A DNA stretch of 32,000 bases from Desulfocapsa sulfexigens DSM 10523 (lineage in GTDB: Bacteria > Desulfobacterota > Desulfobulbia > Desulfobulbales > Desulfocapsaceae). Below, one piece after another: positions 7,116 to 25,113 of this stretch. The notes beneath the pieces are model-generated. The model made no database searches and was not told the origin of the DNA. It saw nothing but the letters and a program-made list of their open reading frames with translations. The stretch covers positions 3,390,001-3,422,000 of the forward strand of contig NC_020304.1 in NCBI RefSeq assembly GCF_000341395.1, read 5' to 3'. Made by a program: the position numbers and the translations under genes. The first letter of the stretch is position 1; each line of letters opens with the position of its first letter.

Positions 7116-10100
7116 ATGTCACGAAAAATGGTCACTATTGACGGCAACCAGGCCTGTACCCATGTAGCCTATGCCACCAGCGAAATAATCACTATCTATC
7201 CAATCACGCCATCAACCTCAATGGCGGCAGAATCTGACACAAAGGCCAATTCCAACCAGAAGAACATCTGGGGCTCTGTTCCCACCGTCAGTCAGATGCA
7301 GTCCGAAGCAGGAGTTGCAGGAGCATTGCACGGTTCACTTACCACCGGTGCACTCTGCACTACTTTTTCCGCCTCCCAGGGCCTTATGCTACTGCTCCCC
7401 AACATGAACAAGATTGCAGGCGAGTTGACCCCCACTGTATTTCATATCGCTGCCCGTGCTCTGGCCTACCAGGGATTGTCCATCTTCGGTGATCACAGTG
7501 ACATCATGGCTGCCCGTCAGACCGGTTGGGCTATGCTGGGCTCTCAGAATGTCCAGGAAGCCCAGGATATGGCCCTGATATCGATGCAGTCTACGCTAAA
7601 ATCACGCATCCCCTTCATGCATTTCTTCGATGGTTTCCGTACCTCCAGTGAAATTCAAAAAATCGAACAACTGTCAGAGGAAGACATGCTGGAAATGATT
7701 GACGATGACCTGATCATTGAGCACCGTAAGCGTGGTCTGTCTCCGGATCGCCCTATGATGCGAGGAACAGCTCAGAATCCGGATGTAAATTTCACCGGCC
7801 GGGAAACAGTTAATAAATTTTATGAAGCAGTGCCTGGAATTGTCCAGGAGACCATGGACAAGTTTGCTATCCTCACCGGGCGCAGCTACCACCTCTTTGA
7901 TTACTTCGGTGCACCCGACGCCGAACACATTATTGTTGCCATGGCCTCGGGAGCAGAGACGGTGCGAGCCACCGTTGAGTATCTGGTAGCCCAGGGAGAG
8001 AAGGTAGGTCTGGTTGTGGTTCGACTGTTTCGCCCCTTTGATGCAAGCGCGCTTATCGGAGCTCTTCCGGACAGTGTCAAGTACATCACCGTACTGGATC
8101 GAACCAAGGAAAGTGGCGCGGCAGGCGAACCCTTGTATCAGGATGTCCGTACTGTTGTCGGTGAGGCCCAGGATACTGGTGTTCTTGCCAAAGCACCGAT
8201 TGTGTTAGGCGGCCGCTATGGCCTGGGATCAGCCGAATTCACCCCGGCCATGGTCAAGGCGGTGTTTGACAATATGGCTTCAACCAACTCAAAAAACCAT
8301 TTCTGTGTAGGCCCAAATGATGACGTAGCCTTTACCAGCCTTGATTACGATAAGTCCTATGATATCGAAGGCAAGGATGTCCACCGGGCCATGTTCTTCG
8401 GTCTGGGAGCTGACGGCACCGTTGGCGCCAACAAGAACAGTATCAAGATCATCGGTTCCGAGACCGACAATAATGCCCAGGGATATTTTGTCTATGATTC
8501 AAAAAAATCCGGTTCCATAACCACCAGTCATCTTCGTTTCGGCAAAAATAAAATCATGGCCCCCTACCTCATCAACAAGGCCAGTTTTGTTGCCTGCCAT
8601 AAGTTTACTTTTCTTGATCAGTATGACATGCTGGCCAGCATCGAGGAAAACGGGACCTTTCTGCTTACAACTTCTTTCAGCAAGGATGACGTCTGGAAGC
8701 ACCTTCCAGCAAAAGTCCAGAAGCAGATGATTGACAAGAAGTTGAAATTTTACATCATCGATGCCATCAGCCTCGCCGCAGCCCTGGGCCTTGGCGCCAG
8801 GATCAACATGATCATGCAGACTGCTTTCTTTTTGATCTCCGACATCATCTCCAAAGAAGAAGCCATCAGCTCCATCAAAACCGCCATCAAAAAAACATAC
8901 GGAAAAAAGGGTGAGAAGGTGGTCAAGATGAACTACGACGCCGTGGACGCAGCGGTAAACAATATCGTATCCGTTACTGTACCCTCATCTATCAACGGCC
9001 ACGAACTTCCACCAACCGTACCCGCCGATGCCCCTGCTTTCGTCAAGGAGGTAACGGCAAAGATGATTGAGGGCAAGGGGTCCGAGATCAGGGTTTCCCA
9101 GATGCCCTGCGATGGTACCTGGCCCACCGCCACTACCCAATATGAAAAACGCAACATTGCCGTTCAGGTTCCCCAGTGGGATGCGGGGACCTGTATTCAA
9201 TGCGGTCAATGTTCCCTGGTCTGTCCCCATGCCTCCATCCGCATAAAAATTGTTGACCAGAATAGTCTGAACGATGCACCTGCAACCATGCAGAGTGTTG
9301 ATGCCGTTGGAAAACAGTTTAAGGACCGTAAATTTGTCCTTGCCGTTTCCACTGAGGATTGTAATGGCTGCAGTCATTGTGTATCTGTCTGTCCGGCCCG
9401 CAAGAAAAATGCTGCTGGAGAAAAAACTGAAGAGCGCGCATTGGCCATGGCAGATAATAATGAGGAGATCCGAATCCGTGAATCAGGCAATTACGCCTTT
9501 TTTCTCAATCTGCCGGAGCTTGATTGCAGTGAAATCAACCCGAGCACTATAAAAGGCAGTCAGCTGTTACGACCTCTTTTTGAGTACCCTGGTGCCTGTG
9601 TGGGCTGTGGTGAGACCCCGTACATCAAACTGGCCACCCAGCTTTTCGGCGACCGGATGATGATTGCTAATGCCACCGGCTGCTCCTCCATCTACGGCGG
9701 CAATCTACCCACTACCCCCTACTGCAAGCGGAGTGATGGACGAGGGCCGATTTGGGCCAACTCGCTGTTTGAAGACAATGCCGAGTTTGGTCTTGGTATG
9801 CGCCAGACCGTCAACAAATTGGCGTCCCAGGCCGTTGAACTGCTTGAAGGTGCGGTAACGGCAGGGCTTGTGGAGCAGAGTATGGTTGATAAAATACTGA
9901 ATGCCCCCCAGACCAGCCAGGTAGAGATTGAGACCCAACGTGAGATGATTGCATGGTTAAAAAAGAAACTTGAGGGAACCACCTTTCCAAAAGCTCAGCA
10001 ATTACTCCATGTGGTCGATTATCTCGTGAAAAAATCGGTATGGATATTCGGTGGTGACGGGTGGGCATATGATATCGGCTACGGTGGTCTCGACCACGTG

Positions 10101-10688
10101 CTGGCTTCAGGTGAAAATGTCAACGTTCTGGTCATGGACACCGAGGTGTATTCGAATACCGGCGGCCAGATGTCAAAATCCACCCCCCGTGCGGCCACCG
10201 CCCAATTCGCCGCTGGTGGTAAACGGATGGCCAAGAAGGATATAGGAATGATTTTTGCCACCTACGGCAATGTGTATGTGGCAAAAGTTTCCATGGGTGC
10301 CAATCCGGCCCAGGTGGTCAAAGCCTTTAACGAGGCTGAGGCATATGACGGCCCATCGTTGATTATTGCCTATTCCCACTGCATTAACCATGGCATCAAT
10401 ATGGCTCAAGGGCTGGAGCAGCAGAAAAAGGCTGTTGATTGCGGCCACTGGCCGCTCTACCGCTACAATCCAATGCTTGAAGAGATCAGCAAAAATCCAC
10501 TGATCATTGATTCTAAAGCTCCGTCATCGTCGTTTGCTGATTATGCGATGAATGAGAACCGCTACAGAGCCCTGAAGTTAACCAACCCCGATATGTTTGA
10601 CGAGTTAATGGGGATGGCCCAGAAGGATGTGGATAAGGCATGGAAGTTTCTGGATGGTCGCCGCAAGGCCCTGAAACCTGAAGCATAG
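7116..10688 (+). CDS. nifJ: Pyruvate:ferredoxin (flavodoxin) oxidoreductase, single-polypeptide homodimeric type
   Basis: The product is 1190 aa. The N-terminus is VTIDGNQACTHVAYATSEIITIYPITPST. Two ferredoxin-type clusters read CIQCGQCSLVCPHASI and CNGCSHCVSVCPA. The TPP domain shows GDGWAYDIGYGGLDHV and LVMDTEVYSNTGGQMSKSTP. Confidence 0.95.
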   Translation: MSRKMVTIDGNQACTHVAYATSEIITIYPITPSTSMAAESDTKANSNQKNIWGSVPTVSQMQSEAGVAGALHGSLTTGALCTTFSASQGLMLLLPNMNKIAGELTPTVFHIAARALAYQGLSIFGDHSDIMAARQTGWAMLGSQNVQEAQDMALISMQSTLKSRIPFMHFFDGFRTSSEIQKIEQLSEEDMLEMIDDDLIIEHRKRGLSPDRPMMRGTAQNPDVNFTGRETVNKFYEAVPGIVQETMDKFAILTGRSYHLFDYFGAPDAEHIIVAMASGAETVRATVEYLVAQGEKVGLVVVRLFRPFDASALIGALPDSVKYITVLDRTKESGAAGEPLYQDVRTVVGEAQDTGVLAKAPIVLGGRYGLGSAEFTPAMVKAVFDNMASTNSKNHFCVGPNDDVAFTSLDYDKSYDIEGKDVHRAMFFGLGADGTVGANKNSIKIIGSETDNNAQGYFVYDSKKSGSITTSHLRFGKNKIMAPYLINKASFVACHKFTFLDQYDMLASIEENGTFLLTTSFSKDDVWKHLPAKVQKQMIDKKLKFYIIDAISLAAALGLGARINMIMQTAFFLISDIISKEEAISSIKTAIKKTYGKKGEKVVKMNYDAVDAAVNNIVSVTVPSSINGHELPPTVPADAPAFVKEVTAKMIEGKGSEIRVSQMPCDGTWPTATTQYEKRNIAVQVPQWDAGTCIQCGQCSLVCPHASIRIKIVDQNSLNDAPATMQSVDAVGKQFKDRKFVLAVSTEDCNGCSHCVSVCPARKKNAAGEKTEERALAMADNNEEIRIRESGNYAFFLNLPELDCSEINPSTIKGSQLLRPLFEYPGACVGCGETPYIKLATQLFGDRMMIANATGCSSIYGGNLPTTPYCKRSDGRGPIWANSLFEDNAEFGLGMRQTVNKLASQAVELLEGAVTAGLVEQSMVDKILNAPQTSQVEIETQREMIAWLKKKLEGTTFPKAQQLLHVVDYLVKKSVWIFGGDGWAYDIGYGGLDHVLASGENVNVLVMDTEVYSNTGGQMSKSTPRAATAQFAAGGKRMAKKDIGMIFATYGNVYVAKVSMGANPAQVVKAFNEAEAYDGPSLIIAYSHCINHGINMAQGLEQQKKAVDCGHWPLYRYNPMLEEISKNPLIIDSKAPSSSFADYAMNENRYRALKLTNPDMFDELMGMAQKDVDKAWKFLDGRRKALKPEA

Positions 10689-16571: not shown

Positions 16572-17069
16572 ATGACTCACGACAACGATACACTTTCAAA
16601 TTCTGAAGAGGAAACTCGAGATTTCCTGCTCAGCCTCTCTCTCTTCGATAGCTTTAATGTTGACGAACTTTCTTTGCTCGCTCAACACATGAGTTATATC
16701 CATCTTCAGCGCGGCGAGTTTCTTTTTGTTGAGGGTGACAAAGGCGACTTTTTAGGATTTGTAGTACAGGGTGTACTTGAGGTGCTGAAAAAATCAGCAA
16801 CCGGGGAAAATGTTATCATTGCCCGCCTTGCCAAAGGGAGTTCCATCGGGGAGATGGCACTCATCGACAAGTCACCACGATCCGCAACCGTGGTATCAAG
16901 ACAACCCACCACCATGATAACACTTACCAGCAAGGGCTTTGATCGTCTCACTGAAAAATCTCCCATGACAGGCGTTAAAATAATCCAGAAAGTGGCGAGA
17001 CTCCTCAGTCTCAACATGCGCAGAACATCAAGTAAACTCGCAGACTTATTGAATGTATATCCGGTATAA
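16572..17069 (+). CDS. Stand-alone cyclic-nucleotide-binding (cNMP/CAP-effector) domain protein with no DNA-binding domain
   Basis: The beta-roll pattern is GEFLFVEGDKGDFLGFVVQGVLEV. An intact phosphate-binding cassette reads GSSIGEMALIDKSPRSATVVS. At 165 aa there is no room for an HTH. Confidence 0.8.
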   Translation: MTHDNDTLSNSEEETRDFLLSLSLFDSFNVDELSLLAQHMSYIHLQRGEFLFVEGDKGDFLGFVVQGVLEVLKKSATGENVIIARLAKGSSIGEMALIDKSPRSATVVSRQPTTMITLTSKGFDRLTEKSPMTGVKIIQKVARLLSLNMRRTSSKLADLLNVYPV

Positions 17070-17124: not shown

Positions 17125-18618
17125 ATGTCAGCAACGCCCACAATACTTTTTTCAGACCCAACCCCAGAAAAGCAGCTCTTTTGCCTGCAGCTTTTTTCTG
17201 AGTCTGCACCTGACAATGTCCATATATGTTCAAGCCCTGATGCACTTATAGAGACACTCAGTAAGGTCAAAGTTGATATTCTTTTTCTCAATCTCACATT
17301 ATTTCCCGATGAAGAGTGTATTTCACATCTGGATGCTATTCAAAATGATTTCCCTGAACTTCTCATTATTGCTGCAATCCCAGAGGATCAGACAGCACTC
17401 GAACAGGAAATTCTCAGTCGCAACACCTTCTTTTACATCACGATTCCCTATAAGGAGTCAGAAGTTCAACTTGCCCTTAAACGTGCTTTAACCAAACTTG
17501 CTATCCAGCCTACAGATACATCTGTGAACTCCCGGAAACGCCTTCCCCCATTCCACGGAATAATTGGCGAAACCGAAGTAATGCAAAATCTGTTTTCTCT
17601 GATCAAAAAGATCTCAGAGGACGCACTGGCCACGGTTCTTATCAGAGGAGAATCGGGTACCGGTAAGGAGATGGTTGCAAAAGCAATCCACAGACACTCT
17701 TCACGTAAAAATAAGAACTTTGTCCCTGTAAATTGTGCTGCAATACCTGATGATCTGCTGGAAAGTGAACTCTTTGGTTACACGAAGGGGGCTTTCACCG
17801 GAGCCACCCAGAACAAAATAGGGCGAATTGAATATGCCGATGGTGGTACCCTGTTTCTCGATGAAATTGGTGATATGAAACCCACCCTCCAGGCCAAACT
17901 TCTACGAGTTCTTCAGGAAAAGGAATTCGAACCCGTGGGCGGACTCAAAGCGACTCCCGTCGATACCCGTGTAGTTGCTGCAACCCATTGTGACCTTGAA
18001 CAGTTGGTCTCCGAGGGAACCTTCCGAGAAGACCTTTATTACAGACTTTCAGTCATTCCCTTAAAAATCCCCCCATTAAAAGACCGAAGAGAAGACATCC
18101 CCATCCTCCTTGATGCCTTCTTAGACTTGCATGCTACGAAGCGTGGCAGGGACAAATTCATCATCCCGATGAATGTTATGATCGCTCTGCTCTCGTATGA
18201 GTGGAAGGGCAATGTCCGTGAGCTTGAAAATCTTGTGCAACAAATGTCTATTTTATATTCAGGCAAAGAAATTCAGCTTGAAGACCTTCCGGAAAGGTTA
18301 CTTGCCGATTTCGATCCGGAAGCTGTTGATTATGAGCTAATGAACACCATTATTTCCGGAGTCTCACTTTCTGATAAGGAGCCGGAAAAAATATCACAAT
18401 CGACAGTAATCTCTTTACCTGGAAGGCTTGAATGGCAGGAAGGGCAAGTGGATTTCAACGAACTTATTAATGATTATGAATCACAGCTCATAATAAAAGC
18501 GATGAAAATAACTGGTGGTAACAAAAAAGAAGCAGCTAAACTGCTAAATTTAAAACGAACTACATTACTTGAGAAAATTAAGAAAAAAAATCTCCAGGGA
18601 ATGTGGGAAGAAAACTAA
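17125..18618 (+). CDS. Sigma-54-dependent transcriptional activator (bEBP), FleQ/FlrA-like, with a degenerate non-phosphorylatable receiver
   Basis: AAA+ motifs are GESGTGKE, ELFGYTKGAFTGA (GAFTGA loop), TLFLDEIGDM and VRELEN. The Fis-type HTH is GGNKKEAAKLLNLKRTTLLEKIKK. The receiver-like N-terminus has Asn56 (AAT at 17290-17292) where the acceptor Asp should be, and the conserved Thr and Lys are also replaced. Confidence 0.9.
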   Translation: MSATPTILFSDPTPEKQLFCLQLFSESAPDNVHICSSPDALIETLSKVKVDILFLNLTLFPDEECISHLDAIQNDFPELLIIAAIPEDQTALEQEILSRNTFFYITIPYKESEVQLALKRALTKLAIQPTDTSVNSRKRLPPFHGIIGETEVMQNLFSLIKKISEDALATVLIRGESGTGKEMVAKAIHRHSSRKNKNFVPVNCAAIPDDLLESELFGYTKGAFTGATQNKIGRIEYADGGTLFLDEIGDMKPTLQAKLLRVLQEKEFEPVGGLKATPVDTRVVAATHCDLEQLVSEGTFREDLYYRLSVIPLKIPPLKDRREDIPILLDAFLDLHATKRGRDKFIIPMNVMIALLSYEWKGNVRELENLVQQMSILYSGKEIQLEDLPERLLADFDPEAVDYELMNTIISGVSLSDKEPEKISQSTVISLPGRLEWQEGQVDFNELINDYESQLIIKAMKITGGNKKEAAKLLNLKRTTLLEKIKKKNLQGMWEEN

Positions 18619-18619
18619 A

Positions 18620-20476
18620 TCAAGCCGCTATTTGCGCAGAAACAGAATCAATTTTATCTTCAATCTCAGCATCACTGGCCGGGGTCAGTAGAATATCATC
18701 TACTCCATATTTTACTGCCTTAATTACCTTTGTTTTTGTCCACCCCGGGCCCACGGCTATAAGTGGCAATGAACTGGCAGAACTGATCTTAATTGCTGCC
18801 CCAAGCCCTTTTTCGTCGACTTCAGCCATTACCAGAAAAACCGCTTTCACTTCTCCTGGCAGATAATCACTGGCACTTTCCTTATAATCAAGAACCTTGA
18901 AAGCCACACCACGACCATTCAAAACAGCGGATATTTTTGAACACTCACCACTGTCATTACTGACAATAAGGAATTCTGGATGAAGTGAAGCGCTGGCACT
19001 CTCTTGCGCTCCGACACCGCTAGCGCCTACGGTTGAATCAGCCTTACCAGTTACAGCATTTTTTGAAGCAACATCGGAAGCCTCATCTACAATTTCTGTC
19101 TGTCCTAATCCTTCGAGTTTAAACAGTGTTAAGGGTACAAGCATCTGCATACTGCCAAGCGTTTTTTTCCCGATACTCATTTTACTTGTTGCCATATAAT
19201 AAAGCACATCAGGCATCGGTTCATCAGACTCAGTATCAACCTTCATTGGAACAACCTTTTCAAGGCCAGTCTTTATAAAGCGTATCTTATCCGGATACTG
19301 TTCCTCAAAAACTTTTGTATATACACCTGAAATTATATTGGCTATCTCACCGTAGGCATCTTCTGAGTCATCATTGAATTCTTCTTCAGCTACAATAGAA
19401 TCAAGTTCAGTTGGTGGTAACATAATCAGGGTGCCACCAATAAAAATGGCATCCTTTAATCCAACATAGAGATACCCCTTCCCTTCAAGTGCACCAACCA
19501 CATCCATATGGGCCAGTATCTGTTTACCAGATGCCACATCGAAGAAGAAATCCTCCTTATTTATAATACGTGTGGTATGTTCGGTAAATTGAACATCAGC
19601 TCCAAGGAGTGCGCCAACCTCATCTCCCATACGCACATTGCACTCTTTCAGACAGGAGTCAACACGCTTCTTCTGTTTTTTGGTATCAAAAGGTTTTGCA
19701 TTAGGGGTGTTTACTGTTGCCGTAGTCTCATTACCAGCCTGACCATCTTCTGACGATCCCTCGACCGGCGGAATGTTTCCGTTACCAACAGTATCAGTAC
19801 TTGCATCAGTATGAGGAGCTTCCTTGCTGGATGTGTCGGTAACTTCCGCTCCGACGGTGGAAGTGCTTTCAACTGCCTGTTCTTGAGCAGGAGCCTCTTC
19901 ATCAAGCCCTAATGGTTTAGCTGGAATGAGCAGAACAAGTTTTCCCATCTCCACACCATTCAACTTCATCCAGGCACTAACCTGGTAGTAATTCTGATTT
20001 GGTATCGGTCTGTCAGACTCCACCTCAACCTGCATGGGAATTATAACTTCCTGGGCCTTACGGATAAAACGAAATTTTTTGGGATACATCTCTTCAAAGG
20101 TCTTCGTATAGGCCCCGGCTATGATATTTGCTATTTCACCATAGGAATCATCGATTTCTTCACTGTAGTCTTCTGAAGATGAAGCTTCCTCCAACTCAAC
20201 GTCAGGAAGCATAATGAGGGTTCCACCAAGACGGATTGCATCCTTGACCGAAACCAGGATCGCACCATCACCCTCAAGTTCACCGCTTAGTTGTAATTCA
20301 GAAAAGACGAGTTTCCCGGAAGGTTCATCAAAGAAATCTTCTTTAGAAATCAATTGGGTCGTAAGGTCGGCCATGACCAGGGTCGCACCCATAAGGCCAC
20401 CGACTTCATCACCAACACGCTCTTGAACAAGTTCAAGAATTTTATCAATTTTCTTTTTGGCTTTACTGGAGGACAT
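18620..20476 (-). CDS. Two tandem CheC-like (CheC/CheX/FliY-family) modules plus a C-terminal pseudo-receiver domain
   Basis: An internal duplication covers aa 8-191 and aa 266-455, about 45% identical by eye. Each copy carries D-x3-E-x2-N (DSYGEIANIIAG and DAYGEIANIISG) after a degenerate first motif (GDEVGG and GDEVGA). The linker at aa 192-265 is acidic and Thr/Ser-rich. Residues 499-618 are REC-like (FLIVSND..., PLIAVGPG, GVDDILLTP) but lack the acceptor Asp, Thr and Lys. Confidence 0.6.
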   Translation of the reverse strand: MSSSKAKKKIDKILELVQERVGDEVGGLMGATLVMADLTTQLISKEDFFDEPSGKLVFSELQLSGELEGDGAILVSVKDAIRLGGTLIMLPDVELEEASSSEDYSEEIDDSYGEIANIIAGAYTKTFEEMYPKKFRFIRKAQEVIIPMQVEVESDRPIPNQNYYQVSAWMKLNGVEMGKLVLLIPAKPLGLDEEAPAQEQAVESTSTVGAEVTDTSSKEAPHTDASTDTVGNGNIPPVEGSSEDGQAGNETTATVNTPNAKPFDTKKQKKRVDSCLKECNVRMGDEVGALLGADVQFTEHTTRIINKEDFFFDVASGKQILAHMDVVGALEGKGYLYVGLKDAIFIGGTLIMLPPTELDSIVAEEEFNDDSEDAYGEIANIISGVYTKVFEEQYPDKIRFIKTGLEKVVPMKVDTESDEPMPDVLYYMATSKMSIGKKTLGSMQMLVPLTLFKLEGLGQTEIVDEASDVASKNAVTGKADSTVGASGVGAQESASASLHPEFLIVSNDSGECSKISAVLNGRGVAFKVLDYKESASDYLPGEVKAVFLVMAEVDEKGLGAAIKISSASSLPLIAVGPGWTKTKVIKAVKYGVDDILLTPASDAEIEDKIDSVSAQIAA

Positions 20477-20623: not shown

Positions 20624-21088
20624 TCAATCAATATATTTTAATTCCACCATAAACAATCCACCATTCATGGCAAAATGAACAACAACTCTTGTGGCGCCAG
20701 ACATTCCACTGGTACTAAAGGATTCACCAATAACCGTTGTGGGAATGGCAATTTGAATATCCTTGCCATCTTCCGCAAAGGAATTTTTCATATTCCCAGC
20801 AACCATATTGGCAATTTCACCAATGGCATCTTTCACGTCCTCATCTATTTCAAGAACTTCCATTCCTAAAAATGTTCCGGTTATATCCCTTGCCACCGAC
20901 GAGGGACAGTGCACAGCCAGCATCCCACGAATATCTTTGCCAAGACCTACCATACTGGTGATATTCGCAGGAATATCTCCACCTCTGCCTTCGATTATTT
21001 TTACGACTTCAAGCTCAACCATGAGCATGGCTGAGAAAACTTCACGAGTTCCATCAATTATTGCCTGCCCAACATCCATCACACTCAA
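20624..21088 (-). CDS. cheX: CheX-type CheY-P phosphatase, paralog 2
   Basis: The size is about 150 aa. A single active-site motif DAIGEIANMVAGN has a Pro 22 residues after the Asn. The N-terminus IIDGTREVFSAML is typical of CheX. The tracked start at 21088 is TTG. The ATG at 21079 (MDVGQ...) is more likely, with AAGGGA 10 nt upstream. Confidence 0.75.
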   Translation of the reverse strand: MSVMDVGQAIIDGTREVFSAMLMVELEVVKIIEGRGGDIPANITSMVGLGKDIRGMLAVHCPSSVARDITGTFLGMEVLEIDEDVKDAIGEIANMVAGNMKNSFAEDGKDIQIAIPTTVIGESFSTSGMSGATRVVVHFAMNGGLFMVELKYID

Positions 21089-21187: not shown

Positions 21188-21640
21188 CTACTTCTCAAGA
21201 TCCATTTCAACCAGAAAACAGCCTTTACCGGTATCAAATTCAATAATAATTTTTTCTACCTCTTTATCAGAACTGAAACTGTATTCACGTCCACAAATGG
21301 TTGAAGGGAGAGACAAGTCAATATCTCGACCATTTTCTGACAAAATGGTTTTCACATTGCCACCGAGCATATTGGCAACCTCACCAATAGCATCATGAAC
21401 ATCATCGTTGATTTCTTCAACATCCATCATGAGAAAACTGCTGGTTATTGCCAATGCAACACTGTAAGGAACATGCACCGCAAGAACCCCCTTATGGGTA
21501 CCAGCAAGTCCTATCATTCCGGTTATGGTATCCTGAAGAACACCATGAGTGGTCATCACTTCTTTAACGCTCAAGTCCATCATGACCATGGATGAAAAAA
21601 TCTCCTTGGTCGATTGAATCATCTTGTCCTGAATCTCCAC
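21188..21640 (-). CDS. cheX: CheX-type CheY-P phosphatase, paralog 1
   Basis: The motif is DAIGEVANMLGGN with a Pro 22 residues after the Asn. It is about 40% identical to paralog 2 by eye. I chose the GTG start at 21640 because AAGGAGG lies 5 nt upstream; the tracked start at 21661 is TTG inside the cheY-cheX spacer. Confidence 0.75.
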   Translation of the reverse strand: MEIQDKMIQSTKEIFSSMVMMDLSVKEVMTTHGVLQDTITGMIGLAGTHKGVLAVHVPYSVALAITSSFLMMDVEEINDDVHDAIGEVANMLGGNVKTILSENGRDIDLSLPSTICGREYSFSSDKEVEKIIIEFDTGKGCFLVEMDLEK

Positions 21641-21664
21641 GCTAACCTCCTTGTAAAGCAACAG

Positions 21665-22036
21665 TTATAGAAGTGGTCCAAGAACCTCATTAACCTTATC
21701 AGGAGTAAATGGTTTCTTTATCGCCCCAACAGCTCCAAGGGATTTGGCCTCACCAATAATATCATCGCCTGTCTCGGTGGAAATCATCAAGACTGGAATA
21801 TCTTTCATATTGTCACGGCTGGATTTTTCACGAAGAAAACTAATTCCATCCATATTGGGCATATTGATATCACTCAGTACTATATCAACATTTTCTTTTT
21901 CCAGTACTTCAAGAGCTTCAAGTCCATCGGCCGCTTCAAATATATTATCAAAATCGATCCCTGCCTGTCGCAAGGACCTACCTATAATAATCCTCATAGT
22001 TTTGGAGTCATCCACTAACAAAACATTCTTACCCAT
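21665..22036 (-). CDS. cheY: CheY-like single-domain response regulator with canonical phosphorylation residues
   Basis: Motifs are VLLVDDSKTMR, VDIVLSDINMPNMDG, PVLMISTE and AIKKPF. AGGAGG lies 5 nt upstream of the ATG. Confidence 0.9.
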   Translation of the reverse strand: MGKNVLLVDDSKTMRIIIGRSLRQAGIDFDNIFEAADGLEALEVLEKENVDIVLSDINMPNMDGISFLREKSSRDNMKDIPVLMISTETGDDIIGEAKSLGAVGAIKKPFTPDKVNEVLGPLL

Positions 22037-22251: not shown

Positions 22252-24657
22252 ATGAAAAAATATTCCATAATATTCTATATTTTCACTCTGTTAGGACCCC
22301 ATGTGGCAAATGCCGAGAGTGTCCTTAACAGAATCAATAAAATCAACACTAAGAATGCTGTTGAGTTGTACTGCTCATTCACTAGTATTCCAAGCTATCG
22401 ATCTAATATCAGGGAAAAAAGAGTCGATTTCATTTTGGAAGATACCACCCTGGACCCGAATCTCAAATTTTTCAAAGCTGACGACAGGATAGTCAAAATT
22501 CTGTCACTCAATAAAAATAATAAAACTGTTCTATCATTTTTTTTCAGATATCCACCGCAAAGTTTTGAAGTAACCCCGAATGAAAAAGACAACAAATTAA
22601 TAGTAAACATCCTGCTTGGAAACCCATATTCCACAGCCTTACCAAATTTTTCATCAAAACTTTCAGGACTGACTATCCTTGAAAGAACTACTAAAGATTT
22701 TTCCAATCCTCTTATTGCATCCCCCTATGCCGCGGACTGGCGAAGTTTCTTCAAACTCTACGAATCAAAAATACAGCTCAGCATGCCCGTGCAGTTTACC
22801 ATGCTGCCTTTTCCTGCAATCGCCTTTCTCCTGCCTGATAGAGAAGAAAACAATTCACTTCTGAGTGCGGAGATTCATGGGCTCGCAAAAGAAGAACTTT
22901 GGGATGATCTTCTCCCAATACTTCTCAAGAAGATTACCGTTGAGCAAGATCCTGAAATTAAGAAAAAACTAGCACTTACCTACGGAGAAGTACTCTCAAG
23001 AAACAATAATTTTGTTGATGCTTACAAACAGTTTTATCTTCTGGCCGATGAGTACGGAGATGAAGAGATAGGTGTTTTTGCCAAATATCTCCTCATACTG
23101 CTCCGAGCCAGATTTGAAGACCCGTTTATTGCAGATTTTGAACTGAGAAAACTCCAGGAATCCATGACTCCTGCCAATCCCTTGACACCCTATTTCAGAA
23201 TCACTCAGATCGAAACAGCACTGGCAACACAACAATACCCACGGATGCGTTCTCTACTCGAACTCGATGACATTGGATATCCTGGTGATACCGCCACCAT
23301 AAAAGAATTAAGACAGGCTGATTACTGGTATGGTGTAGGTGAATTAATCAAAGCCTATATAGGCTATCAACTTCTCGATAAAAACGAACTTTTACGGGAA
23401 AAAGTTTTTTCTCTCAACGGTTACTGTAACACCCTGTATCAGCAAAAACAATTTACTGATGCGGCCACCTGTTACACCACATTAAGTAGTCATATCAAAG
23501 ATAAAGAGAAACTTGGAATCACTACCTTCAGACAATACCTTTCTGAATTGCACTATAAACGTCCCAGTGAAATGATAGATTATTTTGCCCGCATAGAAGA
23601 CACGTATCAAGGTACAGTAGCAGGTTTTCTTGGTGCCATTAAAAAAACCGATTTACAATACCTGACCCTCGAAGAATGGGACGCAAATGCCGTTCTTCAT
23701 TACAAAAAATTTGCTGCCACGGCCCCAACACGCGAAGGCAGAGAAGAAGCAAGCTTCAAAGAGGCCCTCGTTTACAGACTGCTTAATGAGAATATAAAAA
23801 GCCTTAATCTCATCATGTCTTTTTTAAGAGACTTCAGAAAAGGTGATTTGCATCAATCCGGTCAGGCCCTACTTATTGAATTGTTTCCATTGGTCATTCA
23901 TGAATATGTTGAAAAAAAAATGTATATGGAAGCACTGGTTCTTGCAAAAAAAAATCGTAAACTTTTCATAAACAATTGGGTTGATATAGACCTTCTTGCA
24001 AATCTTGCAGATTCCTATAACTCAATTGGCATATATGACGAAGCGTCCAAGCTGTACCTCTACCTCATCACACTCTCATCGGAAGACAAAAAAGAGAACT
24101 ACTATCTGCCTATGATCAAGGCTGCTTATGACCATGGAGACTACAATATTGTTGAAGATTTTGCTGATCAATACAGTTTCCGCTATGCTGACGGAATATA
24201 TAAAAAAGATATCTTATTGCTCCGCATAAAAAGCTTGCTTGCAGAAGAACGTTTCGCCGATGCAGTTGCTTTACTCCCGGATCCAATACCCGTCACCGAA
24301 GATTTTTCCCTTCTTGCGGCTTCTCTGTATTTTTATGAAAATGATTACAGTAGGGTTGTTTCCATTCTGGACAGGGATTTGACAATCAGTAGCGATAAAC
24401 TTGGTAGAAGTTCATTCCTACTGGCTGAAAGCATGTATCAATTACAAGATTTCGTCAGGGCAGAGGCATTTTTTGCAAAAATTCCCGAGGAATCAAACCA
24501 TCATGATCAGGCACTCTACAGGCTTGGAGAACTTCTTAAGAAGGAAGGTAAAAAAAAGGAGGCTCTAAAATTATTTAGGGAACTTGTCGAAACAGGAAAG
24601 AATGAGCTGTGGGTTAAGATGGCTCAAAAAGAAATTGAATTAAAAGACATTCTTTAG
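22252..24657 (+). CDS. Secreted or periplasmic 801-aa TPR-repeat protein, first gene of the flagellar rod/MS-ring operon
   Basis: The Sec signal is MKKYSIIFYIFTLLGPHVANA|E. A beta-rich N-terminal region of about 100 aa follows. The rest is helical-repeat/TPR-like, for example FLLAESMYQLQDFVRAEAFFAKI and ALYRLGELLKKEGKKKEALKLFRELV. No terminator precedes flgB, which starts 42 nt downstream. Confidence 0.7.
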   Translation: MKKYSIIFYIFTLLGPHVANAESVLNRINKINTKNAVELYCSFTSIPSYRSNIREKRVDFILEDTTLDPNLKFFKADDRIVKILSLNKNNKTVLSFFFRYPPQSFEVTPNEKDNKLIVNILLGNPYSTALPNFSSKLSGLTILERTTKDFSNPLIASPYAADWRSFFKLYESKIQLSMPVQFTMLPFPAIAFLLPDREENNSLLSAEIHGLAKEELWDDLLPILLKKITVEQDPEIKKKLALTYGEVLSRNNNFVDAYKQFYLLADEYGDEEIGVFAKYLLILLRARFEDPFIADFELRKLQESMTPANPLTPYFRITQIETALATQQYPRMRSLLELDDIGYPGDTATIKELRQADYWYGVGELIKAYIGYQLLDKNELLREKVFSLNGYCNTLYQQKQFTDAATCYTTLSSHIKDKEKLGITTFRQYLSELHYKRPSEMIDYFARIEDTYQGTVAGFLGAIKKTDLQYLTLEEWDANAVLHYKKFAATAPTREGREEASFKEALVYRLLNENIKSLNLIMSFLRDFRKGDLHQSGQALLIELFPLVIHEYVEKKMYMEALVLAKKNRKLFINNWVDIDLLANLADSYNSIGIYDEASKLYLYLITLSSEDKKENYYLPMIKAAYDHGDYNIVEDFADQYSFRYADGIYKKDILLLRIKSLLAEERFADAVALLPDPIPVTEDFSLLAASLYFYENDYSRVVSILDRDLTISSDKLGRSSFLLAESMYQLQDFVRAEAFFAKIPEESNHHDQALYRLGELLKKEGKKKEALKLFRELVETGKNELWVKMAQKEIELKDIL

Positions 24658-24699: not shown

Positions 24700-25113
24700 A
24701 TGAACCCACTGGACCCTTTTGACTCCAACATACAACTACTGCAAAAAGTTCTTGATTTACGTTCTACAAACCAGAGAATAATTGCCACCAATATCGCAAA
24801 TGCAGAGACTCCTGGTTTTGCCCGTAAGGTATTTACATTTGAGGAACAATTGCAAAACGCCATAACTGCCAAACCTGGAACGCTGGCAACAACCCATAGT
24901 AAGCACATTTCAACTGCTCCGACGAGTGTCAGTTCAGTGACCGGTAGAGTTGATGAAGTTGAAGACAAAACAGGAATAGGTGACGAAAATGGCGTTAGTG
25001 TGGATATGGAAATGGTTGCTTTATCCGAAAATGAGCTCCTTTACGAAACAGCGGCACAGTTATTGAATAAGAAATTCACCTTACTTAAATACATGATCCA
25101 GGAAGGGAAATAG
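24700..25113 (+). CDS. flgB: Flagellar basal-body rod protein FlgB
   Basis: Motifs are LDLRSTNQRIIATNIANAETPGF and the C-terminal LLYETAAQLLNKKFTLLK. Confidence 0.9.
   Translation: MNPLDPFDSNIQLLQKVLDLRSTNQRIIATNIANAETPGFARKVFTFEEQLQNAITAKPGTLATTHSKHISTAPTSVSSVTGRVDEVEDKTGIGDENGVSVDMEMVALSENELLYETAAQLLNKKFTLLKYMIQEGK

Follow-up and report, generated by a model that had tools for sequence, protein, structure and literature searches.

Gene and domain layout

The stretch of DNA analysed here, 32,000 nucleotides of Desulfocapsa sulfexigens DSM 10523 (contig NC_020304.1, positions 3,390,001 to 3,422,000) and referred to below as the window, carries on its minus strand, at 18620..20476, a gene for a protein of 618 amino acids (aa) in which two CheC-like modules are followed by a pseudo-receiver. 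The open reading frame (ORF) is real and starts with ATG. The protein matches the Pfam CheX family (PF13690) in two stretches with 36.7 bits, against a cutoff of 27, and a word-indexed search returned 712 homologs. In an AlphaFold2 (AF2) model of the full-length protein, built on a 63-sequence family alignment, three confident domains (aa 1-190, 263-455 and 500-618) are separated by linkers with a predicted local distance difference test (pLDDT) below 50, and the predicted template modelling score (pTM) is 0.41. A second model, comprising module 2 and the C-terminal domain and built on 34 diverged sequences, gave a pLDDT of 92-98 per domain and a pTM of 0.61.

All the features that follow lie on the minus strand. 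Module 1, the 'N type' (aa 1-192, 19901..20476), has a CheC/FliY-like fold with a pLDDT above 90, and its Foldseek matches are FliY (4hyn), CheC (2f9z) and FliM-middle. Its motif, D110-S-Y-G-E114-I-A-N117, lies on the second long helix (20126..20149). Linker 1 (aa 193-262, 19691..19900) is disordered, with a pLDDT below 50. Module 2, the 'M type' (aa 263-455, 19112..19690), has the same fold (pLDDT 92-98; Foldseek FliY E 2.2e-11, TM to target 0.74-0.76) and carries the motif D373-A-Y-G-E377-I-A-N380 (19337..19360), which is likewise conserved in the family. Linker 2 (aa 456-499, 18980..19111) is mostly disordered, the pLDDT being below 50 for aa 459-496. The pseudo-receiver (aa 500-618, 18623..18979) has the (beta-alpha)5 receiver fold, and matches receivers both as a structure and as a profile. 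It contains the signature W579-T-K-T-K-V-I-K-A-V-K-Y-G-V-D-D-I-L-L-T-P599 in alpha4-beta5 (18681..18742) and ends in Ala-Ala (aa 617-618, 18623..18628).

A first-pass annotation, made from the sequence alone, had noted an internal duplication of about 45% identity by eye, in nucleotide ranges that correspond to aa 8-191 and 266-455. By BLASTP, aa 3-185 and 265-448 are 46% identical (68% positives, 184 residues, E 7e-61). The same annotation described the first linker as acidic and rich in Ser and Thr, which is correct (13 Asp and Glu, 2 Lys and Arg, 18 Ser and Thr), and as about 75 aa long, where we find 70. Mean pairwise identity within the family is 74-77% for the folded modules and 75% for the pseudo-receiver, compared with 17% for linker 1 and 36% for linker 2. 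A pseudogene or chance ORF was ruled out because hundreds of clusters share the three folded domains, at 74-77% pairwise identity, while linker sequence diverges.

The gene is the last of a unit with the order cheY - cheX - cheX - target, all on the minus strand. The first gene, cheY (21665..22036), encodes a canonical receiver of 123 aa (Pfam Response_reg 1.8e-25; NCBIfam CheY 5e-24). It is followed by cheX paralog 2 (21188..21661, 157 aa; Pfam CheX 1.2e-23) and, directly upstream of the target gene, by cheX paralog 1 (20624..21088, 154 aa; Pfam CheX 7e-23), which has the motif DAIGEIAN and is 40% identical to paralog 2. No terminator-like site was found between cheX and the target gene, whose ATG is closely preceded by a sigma-70-like site. 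The similarity of the modules to the neighbouring CheX proteins is at the level of the motif only (24-59 aligned residues). Desulforhopalus sp. 52FAK and Desulfocapsa-like contigs have the same cheY-cheX-cheX-gene unit beside the same flagellar genes; in Geobacter sulfurreducens the order, on one strand, is cheY-cheX-ortholog-TPR-flgB-flgC-fliE-F-G-H-I-J (TPR, tetratricopeptide repeat). Among the loci with enough upstream DNA, cheY and cheX lie upstream in 16 of 19 from Desulfobulbales and 14 of 20 from Desulfuromonadales. In nearly all cases the gene comes after cheY and either a single cheX or two, in the neighbourhood of flagellar genes.

Family and module number

The architecture is not unique to this protein. 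It belongs to a phylum-level family in which one, two or three modules precede the pseudo-receiver. The best 120 of the 712 relatives are all full-length and carry the names Desulfocapsa, Desulfopila, Desulforhopalus, Desulfomarina and Desulfobulbaceae; with the target protein they make up a set of 121 close relatives, 63 with two modules and 58 with three. An exhaustive search of 1.84 billion representatives gave 283 clusters at 50% identity (E<=1e-3). Among the best 150 of these 283 representatives, 58 have one module, 51 have two and 8 have three, the remainder being mostly fragments. The three-module proteins of the close set are of two kinds, 15 N-N-M, with N copies 60-95% identical, and 43 N-M-M, with M copies 50-64% identical, which implies two or more independent gains of the third module.

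A degenerate DNA pattern for the pseudo-receiver signature, which matches once in the window and not at all in 100 shuffles, matched at least 120 species genomes, 119 of which were confirmed with a hidden Markov model. Among the matches listed, 47 carry a Desulfobulbales label and 40 a Desulfuromonadales/Geobacterales label; the others are metagenome-assembled genomes (MAGs), unclassified ones of delta type together with a few under odd labels. The nearest species genome among them is that of an uncultured Desulfocapsa sp., with 77% identity. A survey of the two-module architecture had been suggested in the first-pass annotation; the distribution obtained is Desulfobulbales and Desulfuromonadales/Geobacterales, in at least 119 species. 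Module number differs between these groups: among the matches listed, the Desulfobulbales loci comprise 22 with two modules, 6 with three and 2 with one, and the Desulfuromonadales/Geobacterales loci 23 with one module and 7 with two. The core unit is a CheC-like module plus the pseudo-receiver, and tandem duplication is a lineage-specific addition. Some distant representatives (P0213, P0223, P0227, P0245 and P0248; 480-670 aa) have one recognisable module and, N-terminal to it, either 145-335 additional residues or an incomplete first module.

The CheC-like modules

The CYX superfamily of CheY phosphatases is described by the consensus D/S-X3-E-X2-N-X21-P, in which the Glu and Asn, one helical turn apart, reach into the active site of CheY and set the orientation of the hydrolytic water (PMC12887009). 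The D/S-X3-E-X2-N part is present on a long helix in both modules, as DSYGEIAN and DAYGEIAN. The D, G, E and N are invariant across 20 diverse modules of close relatives, and the D..E..N combination is intact in 73 of 77 modules of distant one-module representatives, 85 of 108 of the two-module class and 21 of 24 of the three-module class. Single module sequences gave only noise against the Protein Data Bank (PDB) and a family profile was required; a profile of the 20 diverse modules matched PDB CheC (E 0.015), placing the Glu and Asn onto E112 and N115 of the second CheC active site.

The fold of the modules is of the CheC type, ie two alpha-beta3 halves related by a pseudo-twofold (pLDDT 90-98; Foldseek E 1e-6 to 2e-11, TM to target 0.6-0.8). 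In a Foldseek search of the PDB with both AF2 models, the nearest structure to each module was FliY-middle of Thermotoga maritima (4hyn), with E values of 4.6e-9 and 2.2e-11 and TM to target of 0.72-0.76. It was followed by CheC (2f9z and 1xkr), FliM-middle (TM to target 0.77-0.82) and an archaeal CheC-like protein; CheX structures, of about 150 aa, ranked below FliY, CheC and FliM. At about 190 aa, the modules are larger than the single domain of approximately 150 aa of CheX proper, and they are structurally closer to CheC, FliY and FliM. The profile searches gave the following picture. Pfam CheX is above its cutoff on the target protein, while Pfam CheC (PF04509) stays below it, with 16.6 against 22 bits, and Response_reg is not detected at cutoff. 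NCBIfam CheX_Thtogales does not match, and the Pfam scan found neither a FliN/SpoA domain nor a FliM signal in the target protein. The assignment of the modules to the CheC/CheX/FliY superfamily made in the first-pass annotation, with one catalytic motif each, is borne out by these searches, and the structural comparison that it proposed places the modules nearest FliY, CheC and FliM-middle, and then CheX. By fold, motif and Pfam CheX, the target protein is a member of the CYX superfamily which is not CheC, FliY or a typical CheX.

The two active sites of CheC, on alpha1 and alpha1', are not both present. Each module has only the second-half motif, and the first-half equivalent, at about columns 10-18 of the module, is variable and lacks E-x2-N. 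A profile comparison of one half of the module with the other, made in search of a degenerate first repeat, found no similarity (probability 0.8%). The module is therefore CheC/FliY-sized yet one-sited, like CheX. EVGG and EVGA (module columns 24-27) had earlier been taken for a decayed ExxN of the first site. This was rejected on register, both from the CheC alignment and from the helix and strand register of the model; the stretch matches the end of helix alpha1 in the neighbouring CheX proteins (REVFSAM and KEIFSSM), and EVGG/EVGA is probably not the pseudo-symmetric counterpart of ExxN. What stands of that earlier claim is that neither module has an intact first-half E-x2-N, in either reading of EVGG, and that the second D-x3-E-x2-N motif is intact in both.

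A conserved Pro had been noted 15 and 30 residues after the motif Asn in both modules, compared with 22 in both neighbouring CheX paralogs, and these spacings are correct. Only the Pro at +30 is kept, in at least 90% of close relatives, the one at +15 not being conserved in the family. The +30 spacing probably reflects 8 residues inserted after the active-site helix, ahead of the next strand.

Two further conserved elements were observed in the modules. The sequence AI(R)LGGTLIMLP (window 20213-20239, minus strand, aa 80-88; module columns 81-92) is near-invariant family-wide and is as conserved as the catalytic motif, with G85 in 188, G86 in 181, M90 in 181 and P92 in 200 of 209 modules. Its Gly-Gly (G84-G85) is at the end of helix alpha2, which we take to be roughly the position of the FliG-binding GGXG motif of FliM. 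Every module also opens with a very basic helix, K-K-[RK]-[IV]-D-K-[IL]-L (window 20450-20476 and 19655-19690, minus strand; columns 5-14), in which conservation of D11 and L14 reaches at least 90% among close relatives. Its I-D-x-[IL]-L core presumably resembles the CheY-binding 'EIDALL' peptide of FliM and FliY; in the AF2 model it sits inside helix alpha1 and is not a free peptide. Helix alpha4 in the pseudo-receiver is, like these opening helices, basic; the linkers are acidic.

The C-terminal pseudo-receiver

With the C-terminal domain as a single sequence, a PDB search returned receivers only, and these weakly (best 2qzj, E 0.0013). With a profile built from 25 diverged domains of the family there were 48 PDB matches at E<=0.01, nearly all of them full-length receiver alignments, with Helicobacter pylori CheY1 at the top (E 3.4e-6), followed by ARR1, NtrC1, ArlR, LuxO, PleD and T. 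maritima CheY. An hhalign comparison of the pseudo-receiver profile with the single CheY of the window had been insignificant (probability 6%), and the search of the profile against the PDB then settled the homology. Foldseek matched the domain to MicA, CpxR, CheY and PmrA, with TM to target of up to 0.80, and also to atypical receivers of the CpaE type. Pfam Response_reg, undetected in the target protein, is detected in Geobacter orthologs.

The first-pass annotation had described a receiver-like domain with the acceptor Asp, the Thr and the Lys all substituted, and this description holds for aa ~500-618, in fold and in profile homology. The equivalent of the acceptor Asp is F547, V549 or M550, depending on the alignment, and is hydrophobic in each register. 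The other active-site replacements are D12 to S, D13 to N, T87 to G576, Y106 to I595 and K109 to T598. Of the 121 close relatives, 119 have Met at position 550; the set has Gly or Ala at the T87 equivalent, Ile at the Y106 equivalent and Thr, Ser or Ala at the K109 equivalent, and P110 is kept. None of 130 domains from clusters at <=50% identity has Asp at the acceptor or Lys at the Lys position; the cultured Geobacter orthologs keep the acidic pair and a Lys-Pro, and have Gly at the acceptor position. The fold and the homology are those of a receiver, the phospho-acceptor Asp, Thr/Ser and Lys are missing, and since the acceptor Asp is absent in all 121 close and 130 distant members the domain is a pseudo-receiver. 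Judged from these alignments, phosphorylation was lost long ago and in all members of the family.

The most conserved stretch of the whole protein is W579-P599, with 95.6% column conservation, and P571, W579 and G591 are invariant in the 130 diverged domains. In the receiver alignment the invariant W579, T580, K/R581, V584, V588, I595 and L597 correspond to A90, K91, K92, I95, A99, Y106 and V108 of Escherichia coli CheY. These CheY residues are the contacts of the N-terminal peptide of FliM (PMC3774744, Table 3).

The C-terminal Ala-Ala is kept in 121 of 121 close relatives, preceded by M, L, K or I. It is also found in cultured Geobacter orthologs (…KAA, …NAA and …SAA), and is lost from many other distant single-module forms. 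It presumably resembles the ssrA-like signal recognised by ClpX, and by that analogy suggests regulated proteolysis.

Proposed function and alternatives

The target protein is probably a phosphatase of phosphorylated CheY (CheY-P). This assignment, which is made by analogy, is favoured because the CYX Glu/Asn mechanism is known, the D, E and N are invariant, and cheY is an obligatory companion of the gene; the adjacent CheY is the presumed substrate. Each module of about 190 residues would offer one Glu/Asn pair on its second long helix and, as in CheX and CheC, that helix would insert into the active site of phosphorylated CheY and position the hydrolytic water. The modules would be held on disordered acidic linkers, acting as leashes, which end in a receiver fold that could not be phosphorylated. 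The pseudo-receiver would serve as a constitutive CheY-like domain, its alpha4-beta5-alpha5 face binding a partner that normally recognises CheY. Candidate partners are the N-terminal peptide of FliM at the flagellar switch, or a CheY-binding element of the CheA or CheZ type, and several phosphatase sites would in this way be concentrated where CheY-P acts. For this complete proposal, a multi-site CheY-P phosphatase with a phosphorylation-independent docking domain, we judge the chances to be evenly balanced.

The docking role is favoured because one domain serves one to three modules, because AF2 gives no confident placement of it on a module, and because its invariant residues are counterparts of the FliM contacts of CheY. 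A ratio of one pseudo-receiver to one, two or three modules is in keeping with a common anchor to which catalytic heads attach in varying number. A more specific version is tentative and, taken as a whole, somewhat unlikely: the pseudo-receiver might be a locked CheY mimic which sits on the N-terminal peptide of FliM, tethers one to three phosphatase heads and competes with CheY-P for FliM. The protein would then be an independently evolved answer to the localisation problem that FliY and CheZ solve, with the number of heads tuned by duplication and its level possibly set by an Ala-Ala degron.

Several observations weigh against a phosphatase with a docking domain. Neither module shows the N-X21-P of the CYX superfamily, and with the Pro at +30 instead of +22 the helix-strand junction beside the active site must differ from that of the characterised enzymes. 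In structure the modules are as near to the non-catalytic FliM-middle as to CheC and FliY. Approximately 20% of the modules in distant two-module relatives lack D/E/N, having for example YEK or DTK; not every module of the family is therefore catalytic, and the pattern suggests that extra modules decay into non-catalytic domains. The match between the conserved face of the pseudo-receiver and the FliM-binding face of CheY comes from an alignment and not from a modelled complex, and alpha4-beta5-alpha5 is also the face through which receivers usually dimerise.

The first-pass annotation had offered two roles for the tethered CheY look-alike, targeting to the switch complex and an intramolecular decoy or inhibitor, and of these targeting fits the evidence better. 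As a decoy, the pseudo-receiver would fill the CheY-P site of a module and keep the phosphatase inactive, to be displaced by a signal or by competing CheY-P. A CheY-like fold on a flexible linker to a CheY-P-binding module is what such a mechanism needs, the ancestral-looking form has module and pseudo-receiver in a 1:1 ratio, and the replacements in the active-site quintet are themselves conserved (M550 in 119 of 121; G576; T598) and could mark an interface on the active-site face. However, one pseudo-receiver could not block two or three modules together, and modules were added repeatedly without receivers. The AF2 docking was not confident (pTM 0.41 and 0.61, against a per-domain pLDDT of 94-98), the pTM alone being weak evidence, and the strongest conservation is on alpha4-beta5 and not on the acceptor-site loops that CheX contacts in CheY. 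With one receiver to one to three modules, the stoichiometry fits the decoy less well than it fits docking, and we regard the decoy as unlikely.

We also consider it quite unlikely that the pseudo-receiver is an oligomerisation domain which dimerises through alpha4-beta5-alpha5, assembles four to six heads and replaces the beta-sheet homodimer of CheX, with no specific targeting. CheC is monomeric, so that a dimer is not required for activity, and the modules are of CheC/FliY size; furthermore, the invariant Trp at the A90 position and the Ile at the Y106 position are atypical of dimerising receivers. Against this, receivers classically dimerise through the conserved face, the best structural and sequence matches include receivers of the OmpR/PhoB family (MicA, CpxR, PmrA, VicR and ArlR), and CheX enzymes act as dimers (PMC12887009).

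Least probable, and in our view improbable, is that the modules are non-catalytic parts of the motor or of a scaffold, ie FliM-middle-like structural or CheY-P-binding switch components or a CheY-P sink: FliM-middle structures match as well as CheC and FliY do (TM to target 0.77-0.82), the gene lies beside fliF and fliG and the near-invariant G84-G85 of LGGTLIMLP is at the end of helix alpha2, in the place of the FliM GGXG, but the phylum-wide invariance or near-invariance of D/E/N is hard to explain without catalysis and is what this role fits less well, there is no FliN/SpoA domain or Pfam FliM signal in the target protein, and a component fixed in a ring would not be expected to have disordered linkers that vary in length. 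We know of no FliM with the E-x2-N pair.

Flanking genes

The cheY unit is divergent from the gene for a TPR protein with a signal peptide, flgB/C and fliF/G/H/I/J, and convergent with a sigma-54 activator gene. No cheD was found in the window. The activator (window 17125-18618, plus strand) is a sigma-54 enhancer-binding protein with an AAA+ domain, a Fis-type helix-turn-helix and an N-terminal receiver-like region that is only marginal in Pfam (Response_reg E 0.099); this region may be a second degenerate receiver, resembling those of FleQ/FlrA. The stop codon of the activator gene reaches to 18618, one base ahead of the position, 18620, at which the stop codon of the target gene starts, and a terminator-like hairpin for the target strand (18545-18531) lies within the 3' end of the activator gene. 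The pair formed by this gene and a cyclic nucleotide monophosphate (cNMP)-binding gene (16572-17069) also adjoins the Desulforhopalus ortholog.

On the other side, window 22252-24657 (plus strand) encodes, directly upstream of flgB/flgC, a protein of 801 aa with what looks like a signal peptide at its N-terminus and TPR repeats at its C-terminus. Equivalents of 718-802 aa occupy the same position in Desulforhopalus, the Desulfocapsa-like contigs and G. sulfurreducens, and the protein is thus a conserved partner of the flagellar cluster, perhaps a periplasmic motor scaffold. At the flgB position, window 24700-25113 (plus strand) contains an ORF of 137 aa with no Pfam match at E<=1e-5. Its Desulforhopalus counterpart gave only a faint rod-protein signal, and the ORF is probably a divergent FlgB.

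Annotation and significance

In the full-text literature no paper was found on CheC or CheX modules fused to a pseudo-receiver, nor on tandem CheC-type modules, and a search for the G. sulfurreducens locus tags GSU0403-0406 found nothing. A survey of Geobacter chemotaxis only counts cheX and cheC genes. The view that the architecture was undescribed is correct in that no published characterisation was found; it is not a one-off, being a conserved family which automated annotation has partly seen. Database labels are inconsistent, ranging over 'hypothetical protein', 'CheX', 'CheC' and 'response regulator'. Some Geobacter orthologs are labelled 'CheY-like chemotaxis protein/CheY-P-specific phosphatase CheC' by JGI and 'response regulator' by NCBI, so the pairing of CheC module and pseudo-receiver has been glimpsed by the pipelines and not interpreted. 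Members of the one family are in fact annotated from opposite ends, the Desulfobulbales proteins only in their Pfam CheX part and the Geobacter proteins only by Pfam Response_reg, though their acceptor is Gly, as in the G. sulfurreducens AP017912.1 ortholog (locus piece 9001-10101) and its relatives P0269-P0388. Censuses of Geobacter response regulators and of CheX and CheC genes probably misclassify the family.

Chemotaxis needs CheY-P to be removed fast and in the right place, and CheZ at the receptor arrays, FliY in the motor and the soluble CheC and CheX are the established means. If the proposed phosphatase with a docking domain is correct, the family would add a further design, in which CheC-type heads, with an evolvable copy number of one to three, are tethered to a dead CheY look-alike whose conserved surface matches the partner-binding face of CheY. 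The family is kept across Desulfobulbales and the relatives of Geobacter, which are environmentally important cyclers of sulfur and metals. It would also show, in a clear natural case, how a pseudo-receiver can be put to new use as an interaction module and how readily the number of domains in a signalling enzyme can change. The hypotheses are directly testable because tractable cultured Geobacter species carry single-module orthologs.

Comparison with known systems

FliY of T. maritima and Bacillus subtilis (4hyn) is the best structural match to each module. It shares the CheC-type domain of about 190 residues with E-x2-N, the company of flagellar genes and the concept of a phosphatase placed at the motor. 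In FliY a CheY-binding peptide stands at the N-terminus, each domain has two active sites, and a C-terminal FliN (SpoA) domain builds the protein into the C-ring. The target protein, in contrast, has one motif per module, two modules (elsewhere one to three) and, in place of a FliN domain, the pseudo-receiver. CheC of T. maritima (1xkr, 2f9z) has the same fold and size as the modules (Foldseek E ~3e-9), and its E112 and N115 align with their Glu and Asn. It differs in its two active sites, the first of which is missing from the modules, and in Pfam CheC, which is under cutoff here; the C-terminal helix of CheC binds CheD, and no cheD is present in the window.

CheX (Borrelia burgdorferi 3hzh, T. 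maritima 1xko, Vibrio vulnificus 6vpw) is like the modules in having a single site on the second long helix and in the Pfam CheX match, and two bona fide cheX genes are co-operonic with the target gene. CheX is, however, a homodimer of approximately 150 aa with the Pro at +22 (PMC12887009), compared with about 190 aa and +30 in the modules. The N-terminal receiver-like domain of CpaE/TadZ-type proteins (4dad, 4dn6) resembles the pseudo-receiver in being a receiver fold without a phospho-acceptor (Foldseek TM to target ~0.67-0.69). Such atypical receivers serve protein-protein interaction or localisation. There is no specific sequence relationship, the W-T-R-x2-V-x-K-A-V-K-Y-G-x2-D-I-L-x-T-P signature being particular to the target family. 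E. coli CheZ is localised to receptor clusters via CheA-short, work on which is among the references of PMC2577667. It has an unrelated fold, other catalytic residues and a different localisation mechanism, and its likeness to the target protein is one of functional analogy only, that of a CheY-P phosphatase acting through tethering at a defined site.

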